From positions 8,871-72,870 of the forward strand of contig CAYQCE010000001.1 of the NCBI GenBank assembly GCA_964415885.1: a stretch of DNA of 64,000 nucleotides. The letters run 5' to 3'. The notes below the pieces were generated by a model, which was not told where the DNA came from, made no database searches, and worked only from the letters and a program-made list of their open reading frames with translations. This stretch comes from an uncultured Ignavibacteria bacterium (lineage in GTDB: Bacteria; Zixibacteria; MSB-5A5; JAABVY01; JAHJOQ01). A program made the position numbers and the translations under genes. Shown here piece by piece: positions 8,231-43,635 of this stretch (position 1 is its first letter; every line of letters begins with the position of its first letter).

Positions 8231-8803
8231 ATGACTGTTTCACGTGAAGACAACCTGGCCCGCATGCTTGCCAACTGCAGGAATGGTGACCGTGACGCAT
8301 GGAATGAGTTGATTGAAGTTGTAGCGCCGGTCATCTTTTCTGTCTGCAAGCGCGCCAGGCTGTCACGTGATGAGAGCTTCGATATATATGGTCAGATTTG
8401 TCTTGAGCTGGTGAGATCGATTGCCGAGGTAGAATCTCCTTCGAGCATTACTGCATATGTGGCGACGATCACCAAACGCAAAATCTACCGAATCTATAGG
8501 CGAATGCAGATATTCGAGCGGATTTCCGACGATGTACAGGAATTCCTGCATGGAAGAAAGGTGGAGGATCCGGAGCTCTCTTATGGCCAAATCGAGAAAA
8601 GGAGAGTACTCAAGGATGCGATTTCCGAACTGCCGGAGCGCGACGGACGACTGATAGAGATGCTCTTTCTCGATCCCGGTGAGCCGAGTTACAGGGATAT
8701 ATCTGATAAGCTCGGCATGCCGGTCTCGTCGATTGGCCCCACGCGTATGCGCGCACTCAGGGAACTGCAGCGAATACTGAGGCGCCGGGGATATAGAAGA
8801 TAG
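8231..8803 (+). CDS. ECF-type RNA polymerase sigma factor (sigma-70 regions 2 and 4)
   Basis: 190 aa. The region-2-like segment is FDIYGQICLELVRSI...YVATITKRKIYR. The region-4 HTH is YRDISDKLGMPVSSIGPTRMRALRELQ. Confidence 0.8.
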   Translation: MTVSREDNLARMLANCRNGDRDAWNELIEVVAPVIFSVCKRARLSRDESFDIYGQICLELVRSIAEVESPSSITAYVATITKRKIYRIYRRMQIFERISDDVQEFLHGRKVEDPELSYGQIEKRRVLKDAISELPERDGRLIEMLFLDPGEPSYRDISDKLGMPVSSIGPTRMRALRELQRILRRRGYRR

Positions 8804-8837: not shown

Positions 8838-9428
8838 GTGAAGATGGATAAAAATCGCGGCAAAAACGACGAAGATAGACTTCTCGAGGTTTATCTCGCG
8901 CGGGAGGATTTCGCGGATCGAGCGGAGTTGCTTCGAAGACTAAGGGTCGATAGCAGCTTCCGCCGGGTGCTGATCGATCTTCTCGAGATCCGGGCCGATG
9001 ATGCTGCCGGCTGGGATGCAGTGATGCCGGCGGCACGTGAGCTGGCACGAGGGATCATCGATAGCGTCGTGAAGGATGGTCAGCGCAATGCCGGCGTGAT
9101 CACTTACGATTCGAGTCTGCTGCCGTTGCCGGATGGAGTCCGCAGCGCCGGAGTTGACACACGGCGGCTGAAAGTTGACCTGAATGGCGGTAGGCTCTCG
9201 GTGTCTCTGTATCCGGTCACGCCGAAGTCGTACCGAGTGATGGGTCGACTTCATGACGTCGAGAGTCCGGAAGATTTCACGGCAGTGCTTAATGCACAGA
9301 GCAAGACAGTAAGAGCGCGATGCAACGAGGGCGGAGTGTTCATCCTGGATAGGGTGCCCGCCGGGACATGCGACATTACTCTGCGACGTGGTCAGGAATT
9401 AGTCTCGAAGTTCACAGTTTCGATATGA
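8838..9428 (+). CDS. Hypothetical cytoplasmic protein, a candidate anti-sigma or sigma-associated partner, with a C-terminal CarboxypepD_reg-like beta domain
   Basis: ~195 aa with no transmembrane segment or signal peptide. The N-terminal helical region is LLEVYLAREDFADRAELLRRLRVDSSFRRVLIDLLEI. The C-terminus GGVFILDRVPAGTCDITL resembles a carboxypeptidase regulatory-like fold. The likely start is the ATG at 8844, 6 nt after GAGGTG. Its stop overlaps the next gene's start (ATGA at 9425-9428). Confidence 0.5.
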   Translation: MKMDKNRGKNDEDRLLEVYLAREDFADRAELLRRLRVDSSFRRVLIDLLEIRADDAAGWDAVMPAARELARGIIDSVVKDGQRNAGVITYDSSLLPLPDGVRSAGVDTRRLKVDLNGGRLSVSLYPVTPKSYRVMGRLHDVESPEDFTAVLNAQSKTVRARCNEGGVFILDRVPAGTCDITLRRGQELVSKFTVSI

Positions 9429-12181
9429 TAGACAGCAAGACTGTACATACCATCCGTGACAAGCGAGCTCTTTCAGAGCTCGTCGACGCCGGTTACGACG
9501 GCGATTATCGTGCAATGATTTCCGATATCAGCCGTACGGTAAACAAGCATCTCATGGACGATCTGAAGGCTGCCGGAGAGTTGATCTCCGAAGTCGGACG
9601 AATCAGGAAGCATTTCCCGGAGCGTCTTCGCCCCAAGATTCAGGCGATCGAGGCAAGGTATCATCACTGGACAGGTGAGAGCAAGCGAGCACGGAGCGCA
9701 TATCTGAAGGCCGCACAGGATCTGCTTCGTTTTCGGGACTACGAGTCGGCCGCGCAGGCTCGTCTTGGACTGATGGATGTTCTCATGTATCTCGGGGAGC
9801 ATGACAGAGCTCTCGATACCGGAAGGAGTGTGCTAAGGTATTACAGGCGGAAAGGGGATTCTGTCACTGCGGCTCGCGTCATGACCAATATCGGCAATGT
9901 ATATCATCGGATGGACAGGAACAATTTAGCGCTGAGCTACTATGACAAGGCGCGGGCGATCTTTGAGGCAGATGGCGGCATTCCCGTGGCCATCGTGGAT
10001 TACAACCGCGCCAACATCTATGCCAATCTCAATCAGCTCGACAGGGCATCAGAGTTGTACGAAAGCGCCGCCGTTGTGTATTCCCAGCACGGCATGGACC
10101 TTGCTGCCGCGAAAGCTCGCTATTCGCTTGGCTATCTTCATTTTTTGTCGGATCGATACACGAAAGCGATTACTGAATTCGAGGACTTGATCGATGAGTT
10201 TGAGAGACTCGGCGACGACAAGGCGTGCACCGTGAGTCGACTCGATCTATCCGAGATCAATCTTCATTTGAATCAGTATGGTTCGGCTGTGATGCTTGCA
10301 GATCGGGTAATTGCCGAGTCCAGGTCTTCCGGCCTTGAGTACGAGTCTGCCAAGGCTGCATACTATGCGGCCGAGGCCTATCTGGAGCTTGACGAGCCGA
10401 CCGAGAGTCGGCGATATCTCCGACACGCGAGGAGTTTGTTCTCTCAGGAGCGAAACCCGCTCTGGATCGGGATGTGTGATCTTATGGAAGGCAGAATTGA
10501 GATTCGACGACGAAGATACTCGAGGGCTCTGGAGCTGCTGCTAGATGCTCGCAAGCATTTCCGCAGGAGTGGAGAGCGGCGCAGACAAGTTGACGCAGAA
10601 CTTACCGTGGCTGAAGCGGAACTGCGCTCGGGGAATGGGAAGACTGCCTCGAGGCGTCTGCGCAGGCTGCTTGATCAAAAGACGCCGGGATATCAGAAGC
10701 ACCGGTCGTATTACCTGCTCGGACTGTGTGACTTGCAGAACTTCGCTGTCAGCAAGGCACTTGCGCACTTCGAGAATGCCATGCGAACAGTTGAAGATAT
10801 TCTCGCGAATCTCTATCCCGACGAATTGCAGCACTTCTATCTTGCAGGTAACTACGATACATATCTGAAGGCTGCGGAGTGCTATCTTAAACTTGGAAAA
10901 CCGGTTGAGTCTTGTGATGTGCATTCGAGGGCGCTATCGCTTCTAAACGGCAAGCACATTCCCGCATTACATCTGCGTAGAGAGCTGTCCGAGAAACATA
11001 TCAGGGAGCGAGAGAAACTGAGGTCACAGTTGAAGAAGCTGAATCTGCTACCGCCCGGCGGTCAAAGATCTGCCGTAGCGATTGAGCCGGAAGATATTGA
11101 GCAAGATCTCTGGACGATCGAGCGCAAACTTCGTACAAGACGCTACAGATCAAAAGCCCCGGCGACTGTGGAAGTCGATTCAGAACTGATGAAGTCGTCT
11201 CTGCAGAACGGTGAGGCGATTCTGAGTTATGCGGAGATCGACGATGGCATCGTGGCATTTGTCGTGACCAAAGATTCTGTTTCGCATTACAGGTCGTGTC
11301 TCGATCCGGGAGAATTCCGCTCTCTCCTGTCTGAGTTATCGTTCATCTGCGAGAATTCAGTCTTTGAGAGGACAGCGCCAGCGTCAGATGGAGGCAGATC
11401 AAATGCCATAATAAGCCATCTCCGTGCAGGGCTTGTGGATTTTGCTCTCGATCATTCAGGCATCAAGAGGCTCATTTTGCTCGTGGATGGCGTCTTTGCG
11501 CAGGTGCCGTTCTGGGCAATGCGATTCACGGGCGGTGAGTATCTGCATGAGCGATTCAGCATCAATGTTATCTCCGACCCGGCAGATATTGTGCGAGACC
11601 GTTCTGTCAGCAGGTTCCAAAGCTCCGAGCGATCGTCTGTATTCGCGGTCGAATCAAATGAGCTGCCGATGATCAGTATTGAGACCGAGGAGATCGCGCA
11701 GAGGTTCCCGATGGCGAAAGTCCGATCAAACGGAGCGGCGACGGTCGATCTGCTTGCATCCGAGCTCAGAGAGTGCGACGGTTTCGTGCATATCGCTACT
11801 CATGCAGCACGATCGTCGGAGAACCCACTCTTTTCAAAACTTCTGATGTCGGATGGACCGTTCTACCCGTTTGATTTGTTCGAGGGAGGAGTTCGTGCAG
11901 AACTTGTTGTATTGTCGGGTTGCCAAACTGCGGCACCGGGGATATATTACGGTAACACTTTCAGTCTTGCAAAAGCATTTTACCAGGGCGGTGCTCGCTA
12001 TGTTCTGGCGTCGCTATGGCCCGTATCAGACAAGATAAGCATGTTCTTTATGAGGTCATTTTACGGATCGCTTGCGGACAATGTGAATGTACCATCAGCG
12101 TACTCCAGAGCGCTCTCGGAAGTCCGCGCCATCAATGACGATCCGGGATTTTGGGCACCCTTTGTTCTTTTGGGAATGTAA
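9425..12181 (+). CDS. TPR-repeat CHAT-domain (caspase-like) protease
   Basis: N-terminal TPR-like helical repeats include YLKAAQDLLRFRDYESAAQA, ALSYYDKARAIF and ASELYESAAVVY. The C-terminal CHAT domain has the catalytic-dyad context FVHIATHAARSS ... AELVVLSGCQTAAPG. No signal peptide is present. The start ATG at 9425 overlaps the upstream stop codon, indicating translational coupling. Confidence 0.8.
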   Translation: MIDSKTVHTIRDKRALSELVDAGYDGDYRAMISDISRTVNKHLMDDLKAAGELISEVGRIRKHFPERLRPKIQAIEARYHHWTGESKRARSAYLKAAQDLLRFRDYESAAQARLGLMDVLMYLGEHDRALDTGRSVLRYYRRKGDSVTAARVMTNIGNVYHRMDRNNLALSYYDKARAIFEADGGIPVAIVDYNRANIYANLNQLDRASELYESAAVVYSQHGMDLAAAKARYSLGYLHFLSDRYTKAITEFEDLIDEFERLGDDKACTVSRLDLSEINLHLNQYGSAVMLADRVIAESRSSGLEYESAKAAYYAAEAYLELDEPTESRRYLRHARSLFSQERNPLWIGMCDLMEGRIEIRRRRYSRALELLLDARKHFRRSGERRRQVDAELTVAEAELRSGNGKTASRRLRRLLDQKTPGYQKHRSYYLLGLCDLQNFAVSKALAHFENAMRTVEDILANLYPDELQHFYLAGNYDTYLKAAECYLKLGKPVESCDVHSRALSLLNGKHIPALHLRRELSEKHIREREKLRSQLKKLNLLPPGGQRSAVAIEPEDIEQDLWTIERKLRTRRYRSKAPATVEVDSELMKSSLQNGEAILSYAEIDDGIVAFVVTKDSVSHYRSCLDPGEFRSLLSELSFICENSVFERTAPASDGGRSNAIISHLRAGLVDFALDHSGIKRLILLVDGVFAQVPFWAMRFTGGEYLHERFSINVISDPADIVRDRSVSRFQSSERSSVFAVESNELPMISIETEEIAQRFPMAKVRSNGAATVDLLASELRECDGFVHIATHAARSSENPLFSKLLMSDGPFYPFDLFEGGVRAELVVLSGCQTAAPGIYYGNTFSLAKAFYQGGARYVLASLWPVSDKISMFFMRSFYGSLADNVNVPSAYSRALSEVRAINDDPGFWAPFVLLGM

Positions 12182-12198
12182 TCGATGAGGTGATAGTT

Positions 12199-15838: not shown

Positions 15839-15883
15839 CCTGTTCGCAAGAACAGATGGGTGTTAGCTTCCGCACAACGCGAG

Positions 15884-15920
15884 GACGGGAAGCACGTTCG
15901 GTGCCTCCCGTCTTGCTTTG
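15884..15920 (+). terminator. Rho-independent terminator-like hairpin after the T9SS-CTD gene
   Basis: gacgggaagcac-gttcg-gtgcctcccgtc pairs at 11 of 12 positions and is followed by TTGCTTT. Confidence 0.5.
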
Positions 15921-16168
15921 AGCGGGGGGAACGTCGATCACATCCCGAAACATGCGATTACTGAGCCCATCTTAACTCTGAACGTGAATCACGGGTTTTT
16001 CCACGTTGTTCCAGTCTGGAACCCGCCTCTATCAATCTGAAAACAACTCAGGAATTCGGCTGCCCGAACCGATATTTCAACTATGACTTTCGCAAATACG
16101 GTTGTAACGCTGAGACGGTTCGGGCGGCGCTCGACCGTGCTATTACGAATCGGGCAGGGGGTCAGTGC

Positions 16169-19100
16169 ATGGCTACCAGATCGAGGACGATACATCAGAT
16201 CGAGGAGGATCTTCTCAAGTTGACAGGGAAGATCAACCAGTTTGTTTCAAGAGTGGATACTCCCGGCAGTGCCAACGAGCAGCTTTCATTTGCAAAACTG
16301 TCTCTCGACAGTTCCTGCCATCCCGCGGTCCTTGTGGACTCAAATGCCAATCTCATCTACTTCAATGACGCCGCTCTCAACAAATTCGGCTATACAGAAG
16401 AGGAATTCGGTCAGCTAAGCCTGCTCGATCTGCTTCCGAATCGCGATCCGAGTGCGTGGAGCGACCTGTGGGCTGAGATCCGGAAGCGGATGACCTACAT
16501 CGAGGATACGATCTTGAAACTCGCAAACGGCGACCGGCAGGGGGCGGAACTCACGATCAATTACCTTCGATTCGATGAAAGTGAATACGCCGCCGTGATT
16601 GTGAGAGACACCCTCGTTCACGACTCGCAGGATAACGATCTGTGGCTGAATGAGTACCAATATCGCAACTTTGTACAGAAGCATGAGGGTATAGCTTTCC
16701 GTACCACGCTCGATTTTCGTCCTGTGCTCTTTCATGGCGCACTTGAGGAAATCACAGGCTTCTCGGAAGAGGAATTCATCGAGGGTGGTATCAGGTGGGA
16801 TCAGATAATTCATCCGGATGATATTGAGCTGTTTCTCGAGCGCACGGACTATTTGCTGCGGGTTCCGAGCAGTTCGGCGGAGATCGAGTATCGTATAATC
16901 CGCAAGGATGGTGTGGTGCGCTGGCTCAGCGAGCATATTCAGAGTGTCTGCAACGTCAGGGGCGAGCCAGCTTATATCCAGGGGTTTGTCTACGATATCA
17001 CTCGTCATAAGGAGCCCGAAGAGGATCACAGAGACTCCGAGACAAAATACCGCACGATGATGGAGGCAATGCGAGATCCGGTTCATATCTGCAATCAGGA
17101 TCATCAAATCGAGTACATGAACTCGGCAATGATTGAACGCGTCGGAAGGGATGCCACCGGCGATCTCTGTTATGCGGCCCTCCATGACAGACCAGACATT
17201 TGCCCCTGGTGTCCATGGGATGAGACCAGGCTGGGCAAGACACAGACTCGCGAGATTGTCAGTCCGAAAGATGAGAAGTCTTACCAGATTACAAGTTCGC
17301 CCGTTTTTCACTCCGACGGTTCGATGGTTATGCTGACAATTTATCGGGACGTCACGGATCAGAAGAATGCTGACAAGGAGCTGTCGTTCTTGTCATCCGT
17401 AGTGCAGCAGTCAACGGAGGGCGTTGCTGTAACAGACTTGAACGGACGGATAATGTTCATCAATAGAGCCTGGGCCGAAATGCACGGATACAATCCAGAT
17501 GCCAGCTTTGAGGGGCGCCATATCAGCCTCTTTCACTCTGAAGAGTCGTACTCGATCGAAATCGCGCAACTCAGTCACGATGCCATAGAGATCGGCTCCA
17601 GGTCTGAAGAGGTGGAGCACAAGCGGAATGACGACACGTTCTTCACTGCGCTTACTACAACAACTGTACTAACGGATAATCGTGGTAGGAAATTCGCTCT
17701 CGCCATGCTCGCCAAGGATATATCGGACCGTAAGAGAGTAGAGCGTGAACTCCGCAAGCTGAACGAGGAACTCGAAGAGCGAGTTGAAGAGCGTACGGCG
17801 CATCTTCAGGAGGAACTCGAAGGACGTGAGCGTATCGAAACCGCGCTTCTGGATGAAACGGAGAAAATACAGTCACTTCTCGACAATGCGGGGCAGGGTT
17901 TCCTTACTTTCGGTTTCGATATGAAGGTGGATGTGGAGTATTCAGAGGAGTGCAGGAAGCTCTTCAACGGTGAGATTTGGGGCAGCCTCTTTCCCGATCT
18001 CGTCTATCCGGATAGCGAGGAGAAGCGGGACTTTCTGACGTCGCTGCTGACTGACTATTTTGCTGAGACAGAACCTGAACGCGTTAATCTGTTCATGAGC
18101 CTGCTCCCGTCCGAGGTTTTCCTCAACGGCAGGTACATTCAGGTCGAGTACAAGCCTATCGTTACGCCCGACAACGAGCGCGAAAAGCGTCTGCTGATCG
18201 TATTGACTGATGTGACGGAGAAGCATGAGCTGCTCGACCAGGTCGAGGAAGAGAAGAACCGTCTGAAAATGCTGGTACGAGCCGTCACGCACTACGACGA
18301 GCTCATTGATGCAGTTCGCGGTTACGAGTGCTTCTGCAAGAGCCGAGTACACAGGATTCTCGAGAGCGAAGAATCATCGGATGCTCGCATCGGCGAGTTG
18401 TTTCGAGAAATCCATACATTCAAGGGCACCTTCAGTCAACTCGAAATGAAAGGTGCGGTGGACAAGCTTCACGGCCTCGAAAGTCGGATATCGGAAATTC
18501 GCTCGAAAAGCACGAACGCTATTGACGAATTGAAAACGGTGATCGCCGATTCGGGAATCGAGAACTGGCTCGACGATGATCTCAGGATTGTCACCGGCAC
18601 ATTGGGCCACGAGTTCCTGAGTCGAAAAGAGACACTTCGAGTTGAGCCATCACATGTTGTCGAACTCGAGAAACAGATGATCTCAATTTTGTCTCCGGCA
18701 GAAATGAAGCTACTGTTGCCCAAGCTGAGACGGATGCGCTGCAAATCGTTGAAGCGCATGCTGTCGCCGTTTCCGGAATACCTTGATCGACTGGCGTCCG
18801 CATTTGGCAAAGCGATCTATCCACTCGAGATCGAAGGCGACGACATTACGGTCGACCCGGAGCGCTATCAGCAGTTCGTGAAGACTCTCGTTCATGTCTT
18901 TCGGAATATTATGGACCACGGGCTCGAGAATGTCGATGACAGAATTGAGTCCGGTAAGGATGAACAGGCTAAGGTCAGATGTTGCATCGGCAACGATGAT
19001 GAACATCTGGTAATCGAAATCTCGGATGACGGCAGGGGAATTGACGCTCAGAAGCTGCGAGAACACGCTGTCAAACTCGGCATATGCGATCAGGCCACCG

Positions 19101-19801
19101 CTGACTCGATACCGGACAGCGAGATAGTAACACTAATCTTTGATGACAATTTCTCAACCGCCCAGAGCCTTACGGCAATGTCTGGAAGAGGAATCGGAAT
19201 GGCTGCGGTGAAACGCGAACTGGACAAGCTCGGCGGCAGTGTCGAGATAGAGACAGAGATCGGCAGGGGGACTCGACAGATATACAGGATCCCGATCGAG
19301 GATTCGCTGGAGATACCGGAACTCACGGTTGACGATATCATGAAGCCCCTGATGGTCAAGGCGAGGGAGTATATGACCTCGGAGCTTGATCTGCAGATAA
19401 CCGGGGGAGACGGAGGCAGATTCAGTCGATCGGAGAAACTGGCTATTAAGAGTACTACAGCCATGATTGCAATAAAGGGAACGCTTCGCGGTACTTTCAT
19501 GCTGAGTTTTGACGAGAAGCTCGCGCGATGTGTCGTAAGTCGGTTTTCAATGGATGACCTGACCGAGGCAGAGGTTGAGGCATATGCAGAGGATACGGTT
19601 GCCGAGATATCGAATGTCATTCTGGGCCAGACGATAAGCGCGTTGCAAGAGGGTAACGACCTTGTCACTATTGAGCCGCCGGTCACGATTCGAACCAGCG
19701 CATCTCACGTCAAATACACGAAATCCTACATATACACGAACAATATCGAAACCAACGAGGGAAGCCTGAGCATCAGTTTCTTTTCTTCCGATGCTCTTTG
19801 A
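16169..19801 (+). CDS. PAS-array sensor fused to a CheA-like histidine kinase (Hpt + dimerisation + HATPase) with a C-terminal CheX/CheC-like phosphatase domain
   Basis: 1210 aa with several PAS-like segments in the first ~700 aa. The Hpt motif is FREIHTFKGTFSQLE. The CheA-type N box is LVHVFRNIMDHGLE. G boxes are DDGRGID and MSGRGIGMAAVKRELDKLGGSVEIETEIGRGT. There is no CheW-like P5 domain. The C-terminal ~170 aa (AMIAIKGTLRGTFMLSFDEKLA...EISNVILGQTISAL) resembles CheX/CheC. Confidence 0.7.
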   Translation: MATRSRTIHQIEEDLLKLTGKINQFVSRVDTPGSANEQLSFAKLSLDSSCHPAVLVDSNANLIYFNDAALNKFGYTEEEFGQLSLLDLLPNRDPSAWSDLWAEIRKRMTYIEDTILKLANGDRQGAELTINYLRFDESEYAAVIVRDTLVHDSQDNDLWLNEYQYRNFVQKHEGIAFRTTLDFRPVLFHGALEEITGFSEEEFIEGGIRWDQIIHPDDIELFLERTDYLLRVPSSSAEIEYRIIRKDGVVRWLSEHIQSVCNVRGEPAYIQGFVYDITRHKEPEEDHRDSETKYRTMMEAMRDPVHICNQDHQIEYMNSAMIERVGRDATGDLCYAALHDRPDICPWCPWDETRLGKTQTREIVSPKDEKSYQITSSPVFHSDGSMVMLTIYRDVTDQKNADKELSFLSSVVQQSTEGVAVTDLNGRIMFINRAWAEMHGYNPDASFEGRHISLFHSEESYSIEIAQLSHDAIEIGSRSEEVEHKRNDDTFFTALTTTTVLTDNRGRKFALAMLAKDISDRKRVERELRKLNEELEERVEERTAHLQEELEGRERIETALLDETEKIQSLLDNAGQGFLTFGFDMKVDVEYSEECRKLFNGEIWGSLFPDLVYPDSEEKRDFLTSLLTDYFAETEPERVNLFMSLLPSEVFLNGRYIQVEYKPIVTPDNEREKRLLIVLTDVTEKHELLDQVEEEKNRLKMLVRAVTHYDELIDAVRGYECFCKSRVHRILESEESSDARIGELFREIHTFKGTFSQLEMKGAVDKLHGLESRISEIRSKSTNAIDELKTVIADSGIENWLDDDLRIVTGTLGHEFLSRKETLRVEPSHVVELEKQMISILSPAEMKLLLPKLRRMRCKSLKRMLSPFPEYLDRLASAFGKAIYPLEIEGDDITVDPERYQQFVKTLVHVFRNIMDHGLENVDDRIESGKDEQAKVRCCIGNDDEHLVIEISDDGRGIDAQKLREHAVKLGICDQATADSIPDSEIVTLIFDDNFSTAQSLTAMSGRGIGMAAVKRELDKLGGSVEIETEIGRGTRQIYRIPIEDSLEIPELTVDDIMKPLMVKAREYMTSELDLQITGGDGGRFSRSEKLAIKSTTAMIAIKGTLRGTFMLSFDEKLARCVVSRFSMDDLTEAEVEAYAEDTVAEISNVILGQTISALQEGNDLVTIEPPVTIRTSASHVKYTKSYIYTNNIETNEGSLSISFFSSDAL

Positions 19802-19837
19802 GCTGTTATCCCGGAATCGAGTTACCGGGGAGGGAAA

Positions 19838-20227
19838 ATGGCACGAATAATGATTGTTGACGATTCATCGATGATGCGCCGGAACCTGAAGAAAATAATC
19901 TCGGAAGCCGGTCACGAGGTGGTGGCCGAGGTGTCGAACGGGTCTGATGCCTGTACCACATACGAAGAATGCATGCCGGATCTTGTTACAATGGACATAA
20001 CGATGCCGTACCTCGATGGTATAGAGGCGGTCAAGACCATCAAAGAGGTTTTTCCTGATGCGAATATCATCATGATCAGCGCTCATGGCCAGGAGGACAA
20101 GATCTACAAGGCGGTCAAAGCCGGCGCACGGGGATATATTGTAAAACCCATACGCCCGAGCAAGGTTGCACAGGTTATCGACCAGGTTTTATCCAGTACG
20201 AAACAGGATCAGCAACCACAACGCTGA
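19838..20227 (+). CDS. Single-domain CheY-like response regulator
   Basis: 129 aa, MARIMIVDDSSMMRRNLKK...DLVTMDITMP...ARGYIVKP, carrying the conserved Asp and Lys of receiver domains. It lies 36 nt downstream of the CheA-like gene. Confidence 0.85.
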   Translation: MARIMIVDDSSMMRRNLKKIISEAGHEVVAEVSNGSDACTTYEECMPDLVTMDITMPYLDGIEAVKTIKEVFPDANIIMISAHGQEDKIYKAVKAGARGYIVKPIRPSKVAQVIDQVLSSTKQDQQPQR

Positions 20228-20249
20228 GCGGCGATCATTCCTCAGACGG

Positions 20250-21608
20250 CTAAGCTATCCAGATAGTCTTGATATTCACGAACTCCCGGATTCCATAGTG
20301 GGATAGCTCGCGCCCATAACCGGATTTCTTCACACCTCCGAACGGCAGTCGTGGATCGGACTTGGTCATGCCGTTTACGAACATGTTTCCTGTCTCAATT
20401 CTCCGAGCCACTCGAATTGCACGTTCGACATCCTGTGACCAGACGGATCCGCCGAGGCCCAGCTCGGAGTCATTTGCGACCTCGACAGCCTCATTCTCGT
20501 TTTTGACTGGAATGATGGCGGACACGGGCCCGAATGTTTCCTCATCATAGGCCGGCATGCCCTTTGTAACGTTCGTTAGCACGGTCGGGAGGTAGAAAGC
20601 CCCCCTTCTGTCGGCTCTCTTTCCGCCGATCAGGAGCTTTGCGCCCTTGTCTATGGAATTTTGAACCTGCTTGTGAAGTTCCTCGAGCAGGTCTTCACGC
20701 GCAATTGGACCAACCTCCGTATCTTCGTTCATCGGATCGCCAAGCTTCATCGACTGCATGATTTCGGATTGCTCTCTCTCGAATCTCTCGAGCATGGATT
20801 CGACGACAATGAAACGTTTGGCGGCGATGCAGCTCTGTCCCTGGTTAATCATTCGAGCTTTGGCGGCCGTTTTCACACACTCTGAGATATCCGCGTCTTC
20901 GAGGACTATGTACGGATCTGATCCGCCTAGCTCCAGAACCGTCTTCTTGATTTCGCTGCCTGCAATCGATGCGACACAGCTGCCGGCGGGCTCGCTGCCC
21001 GTCAATGTAGCCGCTTTGACTATGGGATTTCGAATGACGGCTTCGACCTTGCTGGATGAGACCAGCAATGTACGGAAGAGATTCTCAGGGAGATCCGCCT
21101 CGCGGAAAAGCCTTTCCAGCGCCATGGCGCAGCCGGGTACGTTGGAGGCGTGTTTCAGCACACCCGCATTACCGGCCATAAATGCCGGTGCGGCGAAGCG
21201 CATGACCTGCCAGAAAGGAAAATTCCACGGCATCACGGCCAGCACGACTCCGAGCGGCTGAAAGGCAACGAAGCTCTTGGATGCGTCGGTTTCGATTATC
21301 TCGTCGGCGAGGAAGTCGCCGGCATTTTCTGCATAGTAATCACATACCCAGGCGCACTTCTCTACCTCGGCGCGCGATTCGGTGATAGTCTTGCCCATCT
21401 CCCGGGTCATTATCCTGGCCCATTCATCGACTTTGTCGCGCAGCACGGAGGCGACGTTCTTCACGAGCTTCGAGCGATGCTCGAACGATGTCTCGCGCCA
21501 ATCGAGGAAATCACTTTGCACTGCCTCGAGTATCTCCTCGACCTCGCTCTCCGTATGTTCGGGGTAGTCCTTGATCAGTTCATTGGTAGCTGGATTGATT
21601 GCTTTCAT
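20250..21608 (-). CDS. NAD(P)-dependent aldehyde dehydrogenase (succinate-semialdehyde dehydrogenase-like)
   Basis: 452 aa. MKAINPATNELIKDYPEH..., the ELGGSDP motif and the catalytic Cys context GQSCIAAKR are all present. Confidence 0.85.
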   Translation of the reverse strand: MKAINPATNELIKDYPEHTESEVEEILEAVQSDFLDWRETSFEHRSKLVKNVASVLRDKVDEWARIMTREMGKTITESRAEVEKCAWVCDYYAENAGDFLADEIIETDASKSFVAFQPLGVVLAVMPWNFPFWQVMRFAAPAFMAGNAGVLKHASNVPGCAMALERLFREADLPENLFRTLLVSSSKVEAVIRNPIVKAATLTGSEPAGSCVASIAGSEIKKTVLELGGSDPYIVLEDADISECVKTAAKARMINQGQSCIAAKRFIVVESMLERFEREQSEIMQSMKLGDPMNEDTEVGPIAREDLLEELHKQVQNSIDKGAKLLIGGKRADRRGAFYLPTVLTNVTKGMPAYDEETFGPVSAIIPVKNENEAVEVANDSELGLGGSVWSQDVERAIRVARRIETGNMFVNGMTKSDPRLPFGGVKKSGYGRELSHYGIREFVNIKTIWIA

Positions 21609-35317: not shown

Positions 35318-36295
35318 ATGTGCATAGAGAGTGGATTCAGTTGCGGGCCTGAGAAAAATCTACCTGAGGCACAAATGGCCGTGAAACAGCTTATAGTCAA
35401 GAATGCGAAGCCGGACATTGAGATTCCGGACGGCGAACATACGTCCAGCCGCGAGTGGATGTTCCGGCACGTGTTCGAGAGTGTGCCGGACCCTTTACTA
35501 CTGCTCGATACAAGCGTGCCACCGAGAATCAGAGCGTCAAATCGAGCATCAGAGGAGCTGATCAGATGCCGAGGCCGCGAATTGGTGGGAAGGTCACTCT
35601 GCGATTTTCTGGACGATCGGAATGCTGCCGTGGAGTTTCAGGAAAAGCTGGGCGCCTCGGCGAGGGATGGTGGTGATCTCGAAGTGCTGGATGTCGATCT
35701 GGTTTCCTCCGAAGGAGATCTGATACCCGTGGATGTCAGGGTTATTCCTGTGACCAATAGTGCCGGCGATCAGATTGGATGGCTCTATTCGCTTCGCAGC
35801 CAATCACGGCGTCTCCGAACGCATGAGCTTCTTTTGCACGAGAGACACAAGCTTGAGAACCTCCGCAAGGCTGTGGAGAGCAAGAATGAGGCTCTGGATC
35901 GCGTGATCCATGAGATGGAATCCGACAAAGAGCAAATCTCCGCACAGATAAGGTCCAACATAAGCAAAACTGTCATGCCGCTGGTCTCGCTTCTTCGAGA
36001 GAGGCAGCTTCCCGATGACCGGGCTTATGTTGACCTACTCGAGACCAATTTGCGGGATATCGCATCCTCATTTACCACGAAGCTCGAAACTAAGTATCCG
36101 AGGCTATCACCGCGTGAGACGGAGATTTGCCGGATGATCCGGGCGGGATTCGCGACCAAAGAGATTGCCCGTATTCTCAACGTCTCAGAACAGACAATCG
36201 GCACCCAGAGAAACCGTATCAGACGGAAACTGGGCCTCGTCAACAGTGACATCAATCTATCATCCTACCTAAAGTCCCTCGATATCGTGGAATAG
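35318..36295 (+). CDS. PAS-domain LuxR-family transcriptional regulator (paralog 1 of 3)
   Basis: PAS-like N-terminus, a conserved coiled-coil linker, and the C-terminal LuxR HTH LSPRETEICRMIRAGFATKEIARILNVSEQTIGTQRNRIRRKLGL. The start is possibly at MAVKQ (35375). Confidence 0.75.
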   Translation: MCIESGFSCGPEKNLPEAQMAVKQLIVKNAKPDIEIPDGEHTSSREWMFRHVFESVPDPLLLLDTSVPPRIRASNRASEELIRCRGRELVGRSLCDFLDDRNAAVEFQEKLGASARDGGDLEVLDVDLVSSEGDLIPVDVRVIPVTNSAGDQIGWLYSLRSQSRRLRTHELLLHERHKLENLRKAVESKNEALDRVIHEMESDKEQISAQIRSNISKTVMPLVSLLRERQLPDDRAYVDLLETNLRDIASSFTTKLETKYPRLSPRETEICRMIRAGFATKEIARILNVSEQTIGTQRNRIRRKLGLVNSDINLSSYLKSLDIVE

Positions 36296-36771: not shown

Positions 36772-38841
36772 TTGAAGTTCAGTTGGAAAGACATCAAGAT
36801 TTCCCAGAAGCTTTACATCGGCTTCGGGATTGTGCTCGTTCTCGCGATTGCGGTCGGATGGATGGGTTACTCAGGTCTTAATGAAGTTGGTCAGCGTGTG
36901 GAGAATTCCACGAAAGCCACAGAGATGGTGAAGCTGATTAAGGACGCCGCTGCTGTGCGGCAGAATTTCCTGGCGACCCATGATGTTGGCAATTTGCAGA
37001 AGGTTGAGACCATTGTTACGGAAATTAAGGGATACGAGACCGAACTCCGCGAAGTCTTCAAGGATCCGGCAGATCTCGAGCTCCTTAATCAGTGCGATCA
37101 GCTACTCGCCGAATATGTCGCCGGTTGGAAAGAGATGGTCGAGGGGCAGATCAGGATGGAGGGGTCAATCGCGAAGATGGATGTCGCTGCTGCCAACGCC
37201 GACGAGAAGGTAGATCTGCTCTTCAACAGTCAGCAGGAACAGTTTGACAGAGACATCGCGCGCAACGTCGGTGCTGAAGCTCTGAAGGAAAGAATGAAGA
37301 AGTATGGCGGCGCCGGCATACTCGTGCGCTTCATCGGCGATTGCAGGATCAACTACCGCGATTTCCGTCGAACGGAGGATATGCAGTACGCGAAAAACCT
37401 GTATGCCGCCGCAGATGCTCTCGTTGCCGAGGCGAGGAATATTCGAGGGCTGATGCGACTGCAGGAAGATATCGATCAGATCGATGGCATCATGCAGGCT
37501 GTCGGCAACTACCGCACAAACTTCGAAACCGTCGTTGAAGAGAAGCTGCATGCCGACGAGGTCCAGGCTCTGCTCGCAAGTGAAGCCGCAGAAGTTGTTG
37601 AGAAATTCGATCAGCTTGGCAGCGGGCAGCATGCCAAGATGGAAGCCGCTCAGGCATCGGCAATCACGATGGCTATTACCTTCGTGGTTGGTGCAGTCTT
37701 GATTGGTATTTTTGTCGCCTTCTTCATCTCGCGCGGCATAAGCCAGCCTGTCTCGAGAATGGCCTATATAGCCGATCAGATATCGATCGGAGATGTCGAT
37801 CACAGTATCGATTATGAGTCGAAGGACGAGATCGGTGTGCTCGCGGGATCGTTCCGAGAACTTGTCGCCTATATGAAGAACCTCGCGGGTGCTGCGGAGC
37901 GGATCGCTGACAACGACCTTACAGTCGATGTCGAGCCGAAGTCCGAGAAGGATGTACTCGGTAACTCGTTTAAGACCATGATCACGAGTCTCCGTCAGAT
38001 AGTTCGCCAGCTCACTGACAACGCCAAGGAACTTGTCAGCGCTGCTACCGAGATAGCATCCGCATCCGAGCAGATGTCCCGTGGCGCCAAGGATCAGGCG
38101 GACCAGGTGGGCCAGGTTTCCACGGCCATCGAAGAGATGACCGCGACTATCGTCGAGTCGTCCAAGAATGCCGGTGAGGCGTCCGATCTCGCCAGGGGAG
38201 CATCGGATACCGCAAACAACGGTAACAATGTCGTGGCGCAGACGATTCAGGGTCTTGCCAAGATCACCGACTCTGCGCAGAACACGAGCCAGATAATCGG
38301 GGAGCTCGCGAGTGCCTCCGACAAGATCGGCGAGATCATCGGTGTTATCGATGATATAGCTGACCAGACCAATCTGCTCGCTCTGAATGCCGCGATTGAA
38401 GCGGCGCGTGCGGGCGAACAGGGTCGCGGCTTCGCCGTGGTTGCCGACGAGGTTCGTAAGCTCGCAGAGCGGACCGGGAAGGCGACCGGAGAGATTACCG
38501 ACATGATCAAGGGTATCCAGCGTGACTCCAACGGTGCTGTTGAAGCAATGAATTCCGCTGGTGAACTGGTCACTGAAGGGCAGGATTTTGCCAATCAGGC
38601 CGGTGATTCGTTGAACGAGATTCTCGGAATGTCGCAGAAAGTCATGGATATGATCCAGATGATTGCGACCGCTTCCGAGGAGCAGTCGACCGCTGCCGAG
38701 CAGATATCCAGGAATATCGAGCAGGTGTCGTCGATCACGAAGGAAACCGCAACAGGTGCGGAGCAGTCCGCCGCTGCTGCTGAGGAGCTGAATCGCCAGG
38801 CCGAAGGCCTTAAGACTATGGTCGGCAGATTCACCGTATAG
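36772..38841 (+). CDS. Methyl-accepting chemotaxis protein (4HB-type N-terminus, HAMP, MCP signalling domain)
   Basis: TTG start after AAGGAGG. The N-terminus is [30 protein letters not shown]. The highly conserved signalling tip is [47 protein letters not shown]. Confidence 0.9.
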
Positions 38842-38900
38842 CAATCAATTCGCTTCGATCCCGGAGCGTAGTGCTCCGGGATTGAGGTTGGGAGGGATCT

Positions 38901-39413
38901 ATGCCAGAGAAGGAAATTACGAGCGGCAGTGTCAGGGCGCAGGATGTAGATAATACCTCCGTTGACGAACTCCTTCAACTCGTCTCGTTTCGCATTGGTG
39001 AAGAAATGTTCGGAGTCGATATCCTGAAAGTACAGGAAATCAACCGTCTGACTGAGATCACCAAAGTTCCGCAGGCGCCGAGCTTCGTTGAGGGTGTGAT
39101 AAATCTGCGTGGCAAAGTCATCCCAATTATCGACATTCGCAAGCGATTCGGCATGAGTCTGAAGGAGTGCGACAAGGACACCCGTATTGTAGTTGTGGAT
39201 ATCGAGACATCGGTCATGGGTATGATCGTCGACGCGGTTTCGGAGGTCCTGAGGATTCCGGCAACAACCGTTGAACCGGCTCCGGATATCGCAACATCCG
39301 TATCGTCGGAATACATTAGAGGCGTCGCAAAGCTGGAAGACAGATTGCTCATTCTGCTGGAGCTGGGTAAGATATTCAGCGAGGCTGAACGAGAGATCAT
39401 GTCGAGCTTCTAA
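38901..39413 (+). CDS. cheW: Chemotaxis coupling protein CheW
   Basis: 170 aa, LVSFRIGEEMFGVDILKVQEINRLTEITKVPQAPSFVEGVINLRGKVIPIIDIRKRFG, a canonical CheW domain. Confidence 0.9.
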   Translation: MPEKEITSGSVRAQDVDNTSVDELLQLVSFRIGEEMFGVDILKVQEINRLTEITKVPQAPSFVEGVINLRGKVIPIIDIRKRFGMSLKECDKDTRIVVVDIETSVMGMIVDAVSEVLRIPATTVEPAPDIATSVSSEYIRGVAKLEDRLLILLELGKIFSEAEREIMSSF

Positions 39414-39627
39414 GCCCGCCGCTTATGCACTTGAAATCGGGCCCCGGTTGAACAAGCTGCAGCCGGGGTTCGGAAGCTGTTTGGTGTCTTATTAGACAGC
39501 CTCCTCTCTTATGTCGATGACCTGACCGCCACGAAATAATATCATTGTTACCCCGCCCTAATATTCTACTAATATTTCGGTGCGATCTTTGCCGTGACAC
39601 CAAAACAAGGGTACGTACTGGCAGCTC

Positions 39628-39745: not shown

Positions 39746-41155
39746 ATGCCACTTGATACGTTCGGAGTAAAAAGTTCAAATCCGGCAGCGAAAACCATGA
39801 GATCATTTTGTGCAAGGCAACATTCGCGAATCGAGGCGTTTCGCTTACTCGAAATCGAGAATTCCGAGTTGAGGCACTCCGGCATCTCGCTTCTCGCGGA
39901 CATAGCCCTGGAGGCAGGCAGTGAGAGTGGCTCCCGACGTCAGATGGTCGAGAGGCTGACTCATGTCATACGGAGCTATGGGGATTGGCTTAGACTTACG
40001 TCAGCCGAAGTGCGCTACTACAACGAAATCCTCGCGGATCGCCTGGCTGTACGCTCCCCTGGCAGCTTCGAAGCGGACATTGAATCTGAGTGCGGGGAGG
40101 CGGGGCGGCTTTTACTGTCGTTCAACGAAGATTTCGCTCGCCGATTCAGATCATGTCTCCAGAGTCTCACCGACGCGTGTGCCGCCGCCGTATCACTCAA
40201 GCTCTTTGATTTCGAAAAGATGCTCGATGATCGTGCCGAAGTCGAACGGCTCTCTCTGGCGGTCCCGGGCGAATCCCGAAAGCTGGCGGAGATTGCGGGG
40301 CAACAACGCGAAGAGAATAAACGCAGGGAAACGGCCGAGGCGGCCCTTCGCGAATCCGAGGAGTTGCATCGTGTTACTCTCGGCAGTATCTCCGACGCGG
40401 TCTTCTTAACCGACGACGACGGTCGCTTTACGTATGTTTGTCCGAATGTCCACGTGATTTTCGGTTATGATCGCGACGAAGCGAGAGCACTTGGATCGAT
40501 CGACAAGCTCGTCGGCTGCGACTTGTTCTCGATAGATGCGCTGGAGGAAGTCATGGAAATCGAGAACATCGAGCGGGGAATACTCGACAAGTACGGCCTC
40601 ATGCACTACCTGTTGATAAATGTCAAGCGCGTCTCCATTCTGGGCAGCACGGCGCTAATCACATGCCGCGATATTACGGGCCGAAAGAAGGCGGAGGACC
40701 AGCTTAGAGAAATAAACTCCAAGCTCGAAGCGGAACGGTTCGCGCTGAGAGAGAAGAACATCGTCCTGAAGGGCGTGCTGGAGGAAATCGACGGTGAAAA
40801 GAAGCTGATCGAGCGCCGGGTGCAGTCCAACGTTGATCGAGTTATCCTCCCGACTCTTCGTCTCATCCGGAGCCGACTGAATCAGTCCGACAGCGAATAC
40901 GCGGACCTTCTCGAACGTAATCTCCGTGACGTAGTCTCCCCCTTTGTATCCGAACTGGAATCACGATGCCAACGTCTCGCGCCCCGCGAACTCGAGATAT
41001 GCAATCTCCTGAGAATGGGTCTCTCCTCGAAAGAAATAGCCGATTCACTCACGATCTCGGTTCATACGGTAAACAAGCAGCGTCAGCGCATCCGAAAGAA
41101 GCTTGGATTAGCCAACACAAATCTCAATCTACCGACATTTCTGAAATCGATGTAA
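39746..41155 (+). CDS. PAS-domain LuxR-family transcriptional regulator (paralog 2 of 3)
   Basis: PAS region VTLGSISDAVFLTDDDGRFTYVCPNVHVIFGYDRDEA. The same coiled-coil linker as the other paralogs, with the LuxR HTH LAPRELEICNLLRMGLSSKEIADSLTISVHTVNKQRQRIRKKLGL. Confidence 0.8.
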   Translation: MPLDTFGVKSSNPAAKTMRSFCARQHSRIEAFRLLEIENSELRHSGISLLADIALEAGSESGSRRQMVERLTHVIRSYGDWLRLTSAEVRYYNEILADRLAVRSPGSFEADIESECGEAGRLLLSFNEDFARRFRSCLQSLTDACAAAVSLKLFDFEKMLDDRAEVERLSLAVPGESRKLAEIAGQQREENKRRETAEAALRESEELHRVTLGSISDAVFLTDDDGRFTYVCPNVHVIFGYDRDEARALGSIDKLVGCDLFSIDALEEVMEIENIERGILDKYGLMHYLLINVKRVSILGSTALITCRDITGRKKAEDQLREINSKLEAERFALREKNIVLKGVLEEIDGEKKLIERRVQSNVDRVILPTLRLIRSRLNQSDSEYADLLERNLRDVVSPFVSELESRCQRLAPRELEICNLLRMGLSSKEIADSLTISVHTVNKQRQRIRKKLGLANTNLNLPTFLKSM

Positions 41156-41460: not shown

Positions 41461-43635
41461 GTGTTCAAAAACCTGAAAATCAACACCAAGCTCATCGCGA
41501 TCTTCATGCTGATCGGATTAGTTCCGCTCATCACAGCCGCGATGATCTCGCTCAACAACAGCTCCGCTGCACTCGAGGAATCAGCGTTCAATCAGTTGAT
41601 CTCGCTTAGAGATGTCAAGAAGGGGCAGGTCGAGAATTACTTTGGGGAACGTCTCGGAGATGTCTCCGTGCTGTCCACCAATCCAACCGTGCTCGCTGCG
41701 CTGAAAGCCTACGAAGCCGGTTTCGACAATGGTGGGGTAAACGGAGAAGCTTGGAAGAGCGCGGATGAGACATACTCAAAGTGGTTGACACAGTACGAGA
41801 AGGAGTACGGTTACTATGATCTGTTCCTGATCTCGGCTGACGGAGATATTGTCTATACGGTTGAGAAGGAGCCGGATTTCGGTACCAACATCGTCAACGG
41901 TCGCTTTTCCAACGAGAACATTGCAGAGCTTTTTAGTAAGGCTCGGACCAGTGTGTCGATGGTAGACTTTGCTCCATACGCGCCTTCCAACGGTGCCGCC
42001 GCGTCATTTGTCGGTGCTCCCGTCCGTGACGAACACGGGCAGTTCATCGGCGAGGTGGCCCTCCAGCTCCCGCTCGATCGAATAAACGCCATAATGCAGG
42101 AGAGGAGCGGACTCGGTGAATCCGGCGAGACATACCTTGTCGGTAAGGACCTATTGATGAGATCTGACTCGAGATTTTCCAGGGAATCTACCGTCCTGAG
42201 CCAGAGTATCGAGACAGAGACCGCCCGCGACGCCATAGCCGGAAATTCGGGTGCGGAAATAGTCAAGGACTATCGCGGAATAAACGTTCTCTCTGCGTAC
42301 GCTCCGCTGGTTGTCGGGGGAATGCAGTGGGGTGTCCTGGCGGAGATCGACGAGGAAGAGGCATTCGCGAAAGTCGCCGCACTCCGTAACTCGATAATCA
42401 TCCTCGGAGTGATTCTTGCGCTGATCGTGGCAGTTGTTGGCTGGTTTTTCGCGAGAAGCATCTCCAGACCAATCACGGAGATCTCGACAGCGGCCGAGAA
42501 GATCGCAGTTGGCGATATCGATCAGTCGATTACGATCCGGTCCGGTGATGAAATCGGTATTCTCGCTGACTCATTCCGGAGTCTGATCGAGTATATGAAC
42601 AGCCTGTCTCGGGCAGCGCAGTCTATTGCGGATAACGATCTCACGATTTCTGTAGAGCCGAAGTCCGAGAAGGATGTCCTCGGGCAGTCGTTCAAGACAA
42701 TGATTCGGAATCTGACAGGAGTCATTCGCCAGTTGACGGACAACGCCCGTGAACTCGTAGCAGCGGCTGGTGAAATAGCAAGTTCGTCCGAACAGATGTC
42801 TCGCGGAGCCAAGACCCAGTCGGATCAGATGGGGCAGGTCTCATCGGCCGTTGAGGAAATGACTGCTACTATAGTGCAGAGCACGAAGAACGCTTCGGAA
42901 GCGTCCGAGGCTTCGCAGGGGGCATCGTCGACTGCTCAGGAAGGCGGCACAATCGTCTCCGACACAATACAGGGCATGCAGCAAATATCTGACACAGTTC
43001 GCGAGTCAGCAGAATCGATCAGCAAGCTCGCCCAGTCGGCAGAGCAGATAGGTGATATTATCGGCGTGATTGATGATATCGCCGACCAGACGAATCTCCT
43101 CGCTCTGAATGCCGCAATAGAGGCAGCCAGGGCCGGTGAGCAGGGCCGCGGGTTTGCGGTTGTTGCCGATGAGGTCAGAAAGCTCGCCGAGAGAACGGGT
43201 CACGCCACGGGCGAGATCACGGAGATGATACGAGGCATTCAGGGAGAGACCGAGGATGCGGTCAAGTCCATGAAGTCCGGTATCGAGCAGGTCGATCAGG
43301 GCCGTGGACTTGCGGATCAGGCCGGCAACAGCCTGACCGAGATTGTAGGCATGGCGAACCGCGTCGTAGATATGATACAGCAGATTGCCACAGCGAGTGA
43401 GCAGCAATCGGCAGCCGCGGAACAGATCACCAAGAATATCGAAGAAGTATCGAACATCACGCGAGAAACGGCGTCGGGCGCTGAGCAGTCCGCAACCGCT
43501 GCGGAAGAGCTCAATCGTCAGGCTGAAGGTCTACAACAGATGATCGGTCGATTCCGCGTGAGAAATGACGAGATCGAGAACCGCGTTACTGAAGAAACTG
43601 CAAGCGTGGAACCCGGCAGAGTTGTGACGGATTAG
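41461..43635 (+). CDS. Methyl-accepting chemotaxis protein with a periplasmic Cache-like sensor, HAMP and MCP signalling domain
   Basis: GTG start, then N-terminal [34 protein letters not shown] ~280-aa periplasmic region ends at a second TM. The cytoplasmic domain is a close paralog of the MCP at 36772-38841, sharing the tip [47 protein letters not shown]. Confidence 0.9.

Follow-up and report, generated by a model that had tools for sequence, protein, structure and literature searches.

The stretch of DNA analyzed here, 64,000 nucleotides from a contig of an uncultured bacterium placed in the Zixibacteria (hereafter the window), contains a two-gene operon that, judged from its sequence, can best be seen as a stand-alone two-component system in which a kinase, a phosphatase, and a receiver of the chemotaxis type have been put to new use. 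The first gene (16169..19801, forward strand) encodes a 1210-residue protein which consists, from the N to the C terminus, of four PAS domains, a probable coiled coil, a family-specific PAS-like domain, a P1-type Hpt domain, a short P3-like hairpin, a CheA-type P4 domain, and a CheX domain. The second gene (19838..20227, same strand) encodes a 129-residue receiver, and the operon consists of these two genes alone, without che genes. We consider it likely that the pair forms a self-contained system in which the kinase and a dedicated phosphatase are carried on one polypeptide. It should be noted that "chemosensory", where it is applied to this system, is a description of the parts and not of the role. 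An initial annotation, made from the sequence alone, had proposed a kinase that works without receptor arrays and carries the phosphatase acting on its receiver, and the architecture, active-site residues, conservation, and gene linkage described below support this proposal indirectly. Its coordinates for both open reading frames (ORFs) match the ORF listing exactly, and the motifs it quoted were all located in the kinase (HTFKG at 749, HVFRN at 909, DDGRG at 953, GRGIG at 1006, GRGT at 1032, IAIKG at 1100, and AEISN at 1145). The Pfam matches detailed below are far stronger than chance would give.

The C-terminal domain of the kinase was assigned to CheX by several approaches. The Pfam CheX model (PF13690) matched at 56.2 bits against a cutoff of 27 (E 3.7e-15), and a profile built from the CheX domains of ten relatives matched every solved CheX at ∼5e-9 with the E..N..G helix aligned, including B. 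burgdorferi CheX from the CheX-CheY3-BeF3 complex. In addition, residues 540-1210 of the kinase were modeled with AlphaFold2 (AF2) on a 33-sequence family alignment (mean pLDDT, the per-residue confidence, 87.4; pTM, the predicted template modeling (TM) score, 0.68), and the C-terminal domain of the model has the CheX fold, with a TM score of 0.81 against CheX 3hm4. The active-site consensus of the CheX family is D/S-x3-E-x2-N-x21-P (PMC12887009), and residues D1142, E1146, N1149, and P1171 fit this spacing exactly. Only one ExxN motif is present within residues 1045-1210. CheX has one active site per domain and CheC has two, and the single motif is thus as expected of CheX and not of CheC. 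Conservation was then read from 90 fused representatives, which are long cluster representatives with at most 50% identity to each other. E1146, N1149, and G1153 are kept in 90 of 90, P1171 in 88, and the -4 position (the site of D1142) is D, E, or S in 83. The near absence of change at catalytic residues speaks for a functional phosphatase and a functional phospho-relay, and the CheX domain is apparently an intact phosphatase. The initial annotation had named loss of the catalytic E/N residues or failure to match CheX/CheC profiles as findings that would speak against it; both points were checked, and the domain matches PF13690 and retains E1146 and N1149.

The kinase core upstream of this domain is of the CheA type. 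The Pfam Hpt model reached 15.4 bits on the kinase, under its cutoff of 24.6, and exceeded the threshold in 15 of 48 relatives. Of the domains for which the initial annotation had suggested a Pfam check, HATPase_c (60.6 bits) and CheX are assigned and Hpt is not. The residues expected of a CheA P1-like element, which had also been proposed, are nonetheless all in place, as H749, K752 (+3), and E771 (+22) occur without exception in 33 aligned relatives and in 76 of 78 further representatives, where the two exceptions are gaps in the alignment. We take this spacing to be that of H48, K51, and E70 in CheA P1. In the AF2 model the Hpt region is helical, and the His is located on the helix following the first hairpin. 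The motifs that had been quoted as P3/P4 elements are all P4 boxes, so that the P4 part of that assignment stands and the P3 part does not. A hairpin at residues ∼825-861 does align with the P3 part at the start of the T. maritima CheA P3P4 chains 4xiv and 1b3q and appears in the AF2 model as helices 288-301 and 304-318 of the construct. This P3-like hairpin is a putative dimerization element.

For P4, a search of the PDB gave a full-length alignment to T. maritima CheA P3-P4 (E ∼1e-32; 27-33% identity to P4) that takes in the segment specific to CheA by which the G1 box is separated from the G2 box, whereas HisKA-type kinases were matched at only ∼6e-3. The AF2 model superimposes on T. maritima CheA P4 with Foldseek TM scores of 0.86-0.93, the NCBIfam CheA models align to residues 856-1043, and the N, G1, and G2 boxes are invariant across the aligned relatives. 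Together, the alignment and the superposition bear out a CheA-type catalytic core. The absence of a P5 CheW-like domain, as the initial annotation had it, also holds. Neither CheW nor H-kinase_dim gave a Pfam match on the kinase even at E ≤ 1, and no CheW match was found in 149 representatives (versus the CheW and the methyl-accepting chemotaxis protein (MCP) signaling domain of the window). CheA has been defined as Hpt plus dimerization plus HATPase_c plus CheW, with CheW present in 100% of surveyed CheAs, in a 2023 survey that takes HATPase_c together with CheW as the defining pair (PMC10782961). Set against this definition, the kinase has the P1 and P4 parts and lacks both P5 and the association with che genes; without P5, it should therefore not be filed as CheA. 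In a rough neighbor-joining tree of P4, calculated without support values, the P5-less family forms one clade outside recognized CheAs.

In place of coupling to receptors, the kinase carries its own sensor part. Pfam PAS families match up to four stretches (three to four per family) with E values down to 1e-30. Taken together, the AF2 model and a module hidden Markov model (HMM) give the order helix, PAS-like domain, Hpt, hairpin, ATP-binding domain (862-1043), and, after a short linker of ∼6 residues, CheX. The helix at ∼541-572 is modeled as a probable coiled-coil signaling helix. The PAS-like domain at ∼570-682, for which the AF2 model shows strands and helices mixed in a PAS-like manner, is kept in all relatives, CheX-bearing or not. 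It lies between the PAS array and Hpt and is the hallmark of this kinase family. The maximum 19-residue Kyte-Doolittle mean of the kinase is 0.88. The kinase has no hydrophobic segment and is therefore cytoplasmic, in agreement with the cytoplasmic sensing that had been suggested. A Cys/His cluster in PAS domain 3, C334-x4-H339-x5-C345-x2-C348 (LCYAALHDRPDICPWCPW, window 17168-17212), could bind a metal or an Fe-S center and as such be a hint at the sensed signal.

The second gene of the operon encodes a single REC domain with the acidic pocket, Ser, and Lys of a receiver (D8, D9, D53, S81, and K103). Its best NCBIfam model is CheY_Halo (archaeal-type CheY) at 124 bits against a cutoff of 200, and the E. 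coli-type CheY model (PRK10610) gave 67 bits against a cutoff of 189. The earlier designation of this protein as an adjacent CheY is thus appropriate in the sense of a CheY-like single REC domain (103.9 bits) and goes too far at the equivalog level, where both CheY models stay under cutoff. To place the pairing in context, the best 80 of 387 relatives were used as a set of 80 loci, 61 of which have CheX-fused kinases (loci are labeled with L-numbers below). A receiver gene is found from -45 to +210 nt downstream of the kinase in 47 of the 61 fused loci and lies directly upstream of, or overlaps, the kinase end in about five more (L013, L060-L062, and L064), giving an adjacent, co-conserved receiver in ∼52 of 61. 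It also follows the kinase in four of four metagenomic contexts. These partner REC domains are closer to the receiver of the window (median 52% identity, 41-81%) than are the other REC domains of the same loci (median 32%) or the two hybrid-kinase REC domains of the window (23-26%). Comparative genomics hence strongly backs the predicted action of the CheX-kinase on the adjacent receiver, and the 129-residue protein is presumed to be the cognate substrate of both the kinase and the CheX domain.

The partner receivers of the family occur in three forms, namely REC alone (119-141 residues), REC followed by a ∼110-residue domain (226-290 residues), and proteins of ∼500 residues with an added DUF2225. 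REC-alone partners are found here, in other Zixibacteria, and in Proteobacteria, and the second form is found in most Bacillota and Thermotogota relatives (L010-L058 and others; examples are L018:7032-7781, L026:7000-7776, and L025:6976-8475). The DUF2225-bearing partners come from two Desulfosporosinus loci. The ∼110-residue domain has sub-threshold Pfam STAS matches only, and when 18 copies were combined into a profile, SpoIIAA and other anti-sigma-factor antagonists were matched along almost the whole length (best E 2e-4 among solved structures). Based on these matches, many relatives probably signal via a STAS-type partner-switching output. In the best alignment, the profile has no serine facing the DSSG segment of SpoIIAA, which is presumably where the phosphorylated serine of SpoIIAA lies. 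A general link to cyclic di-GMP was considered and rejected, as a same-strand GGDEF/EAL gene lies within 2.5 kb downstream in just 3 of 81 kinase loci plus L088, L090, and L007 and is absent here; a GGDEF/EAL neighbor is a feature of a subset of loci. A ∼300-residue GGDEF gene follows REC in L090, L072, and L086.

The kinase of the window is one member of a widespread family and not a unique fusion. A word-indexed search with the kinase found ∼10 proteins that combine HATPase_c and CheX, including ones from Zixibacteria (40-42% identity) and Sporomusa, as well as a larger set of relatives that end directly after P4. The same kind of search with the CheX domain alone gave no match, and relatives were obtained with an exhaustive HMMER search using the family profile. 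Against 1.84 billion cluster representatives, the CheX profile gave 1944 matches at E ≤ 1e-3 and 489 at E ≤ 1e-10. Among the best 149 matches, 93 have P4 directly upstream, 78 of these with the whole PAS-like-Hpt-(P3)-P4-CheX order, and ∼52 are stand-alone CheX-like proteins of ∼155-190 residues. Closely related stand-alone CheX copies adjoin CheX-less kinases of the same family. A Pfam analysis of 48 fused relatives found HATPase_c and CheX in 48 of 48, no CheW family, and N-terminal sensors as varied as HAMP, 7TMR-DISM, PAS, dCache, CHASE2, CHASE4, periplasmic-binding, Fe-hydrogenase-like, and REC domains. The varied sensors and the lack of CheW are the pattern of an ordinary modular sensor-kinase family and not of a receptor-array kinase. 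Two of the 48 carry a [FeFe]-hydrogenase-like module (Fe_hyd_lg_C plus 4Fe-4S) at the N terminus, which suggests that a sensory hydrogenase can provide the input for kinases of this type.

When one genome per species was scanned, 387 relatives from many phyla were obtained. The best 80 of these include Zixibacteria with up to 48% identity over the 671-residue core, Bacillota (Paenibacillus, Sporomusa, Desulfosporosinus, Syntrophomonas, Fusibacter, and Thermincola), Thermotogota, Caulobacteraceae, Campylobacterota, Gammaproteobacteria, and others. The 80 related loci seldom contain che genes less than 5 kb from the kinase. Cultured carriers with complete genomes are Paenibacillus, Sporomusa, Fusibacter, and Wukongibacter. 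The database annotation of these relatives is generic ("ATP-binding protein"), and the literature searched, which mostly excluded subscription journals, did not yield a description of CheA-type kinases that lack P5 and are fused to sensors and to CheX.

The position of CheX varies among the relatives. Kinase, CheX, and REC are encoded by three consecutive genes in L072:4140-7371, L084:4371-7420, and L090:3084-5892, the carriers being a Campylobacterota metagenome-assembled genome (MAG), an Algicola MAG, and GCA_015233055. These split loci have proper stops and starts, and L072 shows a stop codon, a stretch resembling a ribosome-binding site, and an ATG of its own. In L088/L089, the gene next to that of the kinase encodes CheX and REC in one protein, whose REC matches the receiver of the window with an E value of 7e-34, and L088:3838-7817 reads kinase, CheX-REC fusion, GGDEF protein. 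That CheX is joined now to the kinase and now to the receiver is as expected if CheX acts on the phosphorylated form of that receiver. In the P4 tree described above, fused and unfused kinases are intermingled (at least 20 changes by parsimony), a hint of repeated CheX fusion and fission. A Paenibacillaceae MAG carries two CheX-fused kinases (780 and 1065 residues) in tandem, 9 nt apart (L044:4614-10162); there is no receiver downstream, and the next gene encodes a convergent hybrid kinase.

Based on these observations, we propose the following mechanism. The four PAS domains would act through the long helix and the PAS-like domain on the CheA-type kinase core, in which P4 would bind ATP and phosphorylate H749 of the Hpt domain. 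The phosphoryl group would then be passed from H749 to D53 of the downstream receiver. CheA-type kinases use an Hpt domain and not a DHp domain and are not known to have intrinsic phosphatase activity of the DHp-borne kind. The C-terminal CheX domain would supply the missing phosphatase in cis, resulting in a kinase/phosphatase pair on one scaffold. For catalysis, E1146 and N1149 would insert into the receiver active site and speed hydrolysis of the aspartyl-phosphate, the model being CheX acting on CheY-P in the B. burgdorferi CheX-CheY3 complex (PMC12887009). With the kinase and its dedicated phosphatase held together on a probably dimeric polypeptide, receiver phosphorylation could rapidly follow changes in PAS input, and neither arrays nor CheW nor separate phosphatase genes would be needed to reset it. 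Such a system would be self-resetting, and a kinase family of this design probably switches its own signal off. Domain identities, catalytic residues, the lack of P5 and of membrane segments, the conserved gene pairing, and the breadth of the family are observed, and phosphotransfer to the receiver, phosphatase activity on the receiver, dimerization, any phosphatase regulation, and a downstream output are inferred. A bolder extension is that P5-less, sensor-fused CheA-type kinases with an attached CheX, whether fused, adjacent, or receiver-fused, are a distinct and widespread design in which the input reciprocally gates kinase and CheX on one dimeric scaffold and which evolved independently of the DHp switch. 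We put this forward as a tentative proposal that is less likely to be right than wrong.

Several observations weigh against the proposed mechanism. If both activities were constitutive, the fusion would run a futile cycle. The P3 hairpin is short and has no Pfam match, which makes dimerization an assumption, and a pTM of 0.68 is too low to tell whether the CheX site could reach a receiver that is bound to its own or to the other subunit. The receiver has no output domain, and its neighborhood offers no clue to the target; MCP genes and cheW located 17 kb away leave room for a motility-related output. Moreover, among the 20 closest relatives without CheX, 18 lack a CheX gene within ∼5 kb, and roughly half of these 18 keep an adjacent receiver. 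CheX is therefore an accessory and not a requirement of this kinase type.

The MCP genes of the window raise the question of whether the pair is an auxiliary motility input. The receiver would then bind a motor, pilus, or other switch, CheX would also dephosphorylate a chemotaxis CheY, and a PAS-driven response such as energy- or redox-taxis would run in parallel to the MCP arrays. All parts of the system are of the chemotaxis type, the receiver resembles CheY in being a single REC domain and has CheY as its best family models, the solved and characterized CheX proteins act on chemotaxis CheY-P (PMC12887009), and the two MCPs and CheW of the window indicate that the organism probably has a chemosensory pathway. 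We nevertheless regard a motility role as unlikely. The receiver falls under both CheY equivalog cutoffs, and the MCP and cheW genes lie past an opposite-strand dehydrogenase operon. The orthologous receivers, too, often carry a STAS-like output domain or precede a GGDEF gene. With such outputs and neighbors and with few che genes nearby, the family as a whole is therefore not dedicated to motility. The same MCP and cheW genes, which have no canonical cheA beside them, could in principle bring the kinase under array control despite the missing P5. This is very improbable, because CheA is coupled to CheW and receptors through P5, which was present in all CheAs surveyed (PMC10782961), and no CheW-like domain is found in the kinase or in any of 149 representatives. 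The kinase and its relatives also bring sensor domains of their own. The MCP and cheW genes, in turn, form a distant, separate cluster.

A different question is what the CheX-like domain does. It could serve mainly as a receiver-docking or regulatory module that replaces P2 or P5 and not as a working phosphatase. The kinase indeed has no P2 docking domain, and in one relative (P0005) the C-terminal domain is degenerate and lacks ExxN. A module used purely for docking would have no need of the catalytic E and N, which are kept throughout the fused representatives along with the full consensus, and docking and catalysis are compatible with each other, so that we give this possibility even less weight than a motility role. 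Finally, the split arrangements in some genomes, and the presence of the exact protein on just one other public contig, could point to a chimeric contig or a lost stop codon. That other contig belongs to an independent assembly (Logan SRR7048225) and encodes the identical 1210-residue protein, and P4 and CheX are in one frame, with the modules in the same order, in at least 93 independent cluster representatives and in the complete genomes of the cultured genera listed above. An assembly or gene-calling artefact is thus effectively ruled out. The reading that we prefer remains a chemotaxis-type kinase with a built-in phosphatase for the receiver encoded next to it.

The features of the gene pair are collected in Table 1. 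The stop codon of the kinase and the ATG of the receiver are 36 nt apart. A promoter and terminator scan of 15700-20500 gave fewer matches than shuffled sequence did, none of them usable.

Table 1. Coordinates of the kinase-receiver gene pair and its domains in the window.
Feature	Position	Strand	Basis
Predicted kinase-phosphatase gene, 1210 residues	16169..19801	+	ORF, Pfam, NCBIfam; no hydrophobic segment
PAS domain 1, residues ∼38-148	16280..16612	+	NCBIfam stretch 38-148; boundaries approximate
PAS domain 2, residues ∼162-286	16652..17026	+	TIGR00229 best stretch 162-286; PAS_3 190-274
PAS domain 3, residues ∼292-401	17042..17371	+	NCBIfam stretches 292-401, 294-398
PAS domain 4, residues ∼403-530	17375..17758	+	PAS_9 417-520; PAS 407-517
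Long helix, residues ∼541-572	17789..17884	+	AF2 helix H2-33 of the 540-1210 construct
Family-specific PAS-like domain (LLDNAGQGFL...LTDVTEK), residues ∼570-682	17876..18214	+	Module HMM match 570-682; AF2
P1-type Hpt domain, residues ∼683-795, H749/K752/E771	18215..18553	+	Alignment, AF2
P3-like helical hairpin, residues ∼825-861	18641..18751	+	Alignment to 4xiv, 1b3q; AF2
CheA-type P4; N box H909/N913, G1 DDGRG 953, G2 GRGIG 1006	18752..19297	+	PDB match, Foldseek, NCBIfam
CheX-type phosphatase domain (predicted), residues ∼1050-1209; D1142-x3-E1146-x2-N1149-x21-P1171	19316..19795	+	Pfam PF13690, motif
Shine-Dalgarno-like GGGGAGGG	19827..19834	+	Sequence reading; ends 3 nt ahead of receiver ATG
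Stand-alone CheY-like receiver, 129 residues, D8, D9, D53, S81, K103	19838..20227	+	Response_reg 103.9 bits

The description in the initial annotation needs a further correction, as chemotaxis genes are present elsewhere in the window. The window contains two MCP genes (36772..38841 and 41461..43635) and cheW (38901..39413), 17 kb from the kinase operon and separated from it by an opposite-strand 2-oxoacid dehydrogenase operon, and the organism therefore has chemosensory parts. These genes belong to a chemoreceptor cluster without cheA (35318-43635) that comprises an HBM-HAMP MCP, the stand-alone CheW, and a dCache-HAMP MCP, in that order. The cluster is interleaved with GerE (LuxR-type DNA-binding) regulators at 35318..36295, which has a PAS domain, and 39746..41155; a further PAS-GerE regulator is encoded at 51877..53457. 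No CheA with P5, CheB, or CheR was found among the window ORFs of at least 120 residues that were scanned, and no fliM gene was found in the window.

Closer to the pair, an aldehyde dehydrogenase gene (20250..21608) is convergent with the CheX-kinase operon. Two genes from the operon, the opposite strand encodes a 1472-residue hybrid sensor kinase (21800-26218) with REC, GAF, at least four PAS, HisKA, and HATPase_c domains. Elsewhere in the window, a near-identical dockerin-like C-terminal double repeat is common to three large secreted-type proteins (12151-14076, 46517-50488, and 54832-58803), which are an S8 peptidase, a TSP3-repeat protein, and a Laminin_G_3/He_PIG protein. What the two 1323-residue ORFs have in common is this tail only (59% identity over 90 residues), and the rest of their sequences is unrelated. 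An ECF-type sigma factor ORF (8231..8803; Sigma70_r2, r4_2) is followed by an unannotated 196-residue ORF (8838..9428), which may be an anti-sigma factor, and then by a 937-residue TPR-CHAT protein (9368..12181).

CheA-type kinases are understood almost wholly within large receptor arrays, a setting in which it is difficult to take their regulation apart. In the family described here, which is found in hundreds of species from many phyla, a CheA-type core is wired straight to ordinary sensor domains, and a predicted phosphatase, which in chemotaxis pathways is a separate component, is built in. If the proposed mechanism is correct, the family would represent a second, independent evolutionary route to a bifunctional kinase/phosphatase sensor, would offer a small soluble system for studying control of CheA-type kinases and CheX specificity, and would add a sizeable class, now generically annotated, to censuses of bacterial signaling. 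Culturable carriers include Paenibacillus psychroresistens, Sporomusa malonica, Syntrophomonas wolfei, and Fusibacter. Should these kinases also prove to be a distinct design, they would be an array-free minimal system that might inform how array-coupled CheA arose. In this organism, the kinase marks a signal sensed by cytoplasmic PAS domains. The domain logic will not surprise a signaling specialist; the breadth of the family, the conserved phosphatase site, and the fused, split, and receiver-fused variants provide a directly testable hypothesis.

The closest precedent is found in Leptospirae, where fusions of CheC/CheX have been reported only in F1 CheAs and a dual kinase/phosphatase acting on CheY was proposed (Berry, Andrianova and Zhulin 2023, PMC10782961). 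The parallel lies in the covalent linkage of a CheA-type core with a domain of the CheC/CheX family. The Leptospirae F1 CheAs, however, keep P5, have no sensor domains, and belong to array systems, whereas the kinase of the window has no P5, carries its own PAS and PAS-like domains, and is encoded in a two-gene operon without che genes. Stand-alone CheX proteins (T. maritima 1xko, B. burgdorferi 3hzh, D. desulfuricans 3hm4, and V. vulnificus) are free proteins of ∼150 residues in chemotaxis pathways and are dimeric in the structures described (PMC12887009). In contrast, the CheX domain here is the C terminus of a kinase that presumably phosphorylates the same receiver.

Canonical CheA, with its P1-P2-P3-P4-P5 order, shares with the kinase a P1-type Hpt bearing the H/K/E triad and a P4 of CheA-specific sequence, and the hairpin of the kinase is a putative counterpart of P3. 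Canonical CheA also has P2 and P5, neither of which is present here, and it is described as having no input domain (PMC10782961), whereas the kinase has N-terminal sensor domains. A second CheA-family protein, CheA3 of Rhodobacter (Cereibacter) sphaeroides, has been studied experimentally as a bifunctional kinase-phosphatase and is reported to feed phosphate to, and specifically dephosphorylate, its cognate CheY (PMC2924250, PMC6829392). CheA3 has P1 and P5 with a 794-residue region without identifiable domains, needs CheA4 for its phosphorylation, and works in a cytoplasmic chemoreceptor cluster. The present protein differs in having a recognizable CheX domain as the predicted phosphatase and in being a complete kinase.

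HisKA-type kinases such as EnvZ and HK853 combine sensor input, kinase, and phosphatase for one cognate regulator on one polypeptide, and their phosphatase activity resides in the DHp domain that also bears the phospho-His. They resemble the kinase described here in this bifunctionality of one polypeptide, which is predicted in our case, and in the gene order of kinase followed by regulator in an operon. Unlike in EnvZ and HK853, the phospho-His would here be carried on a monomeric-type Hpt domain, and the phosphatase would be a separate, evolutionarily unrelated CheX domain.

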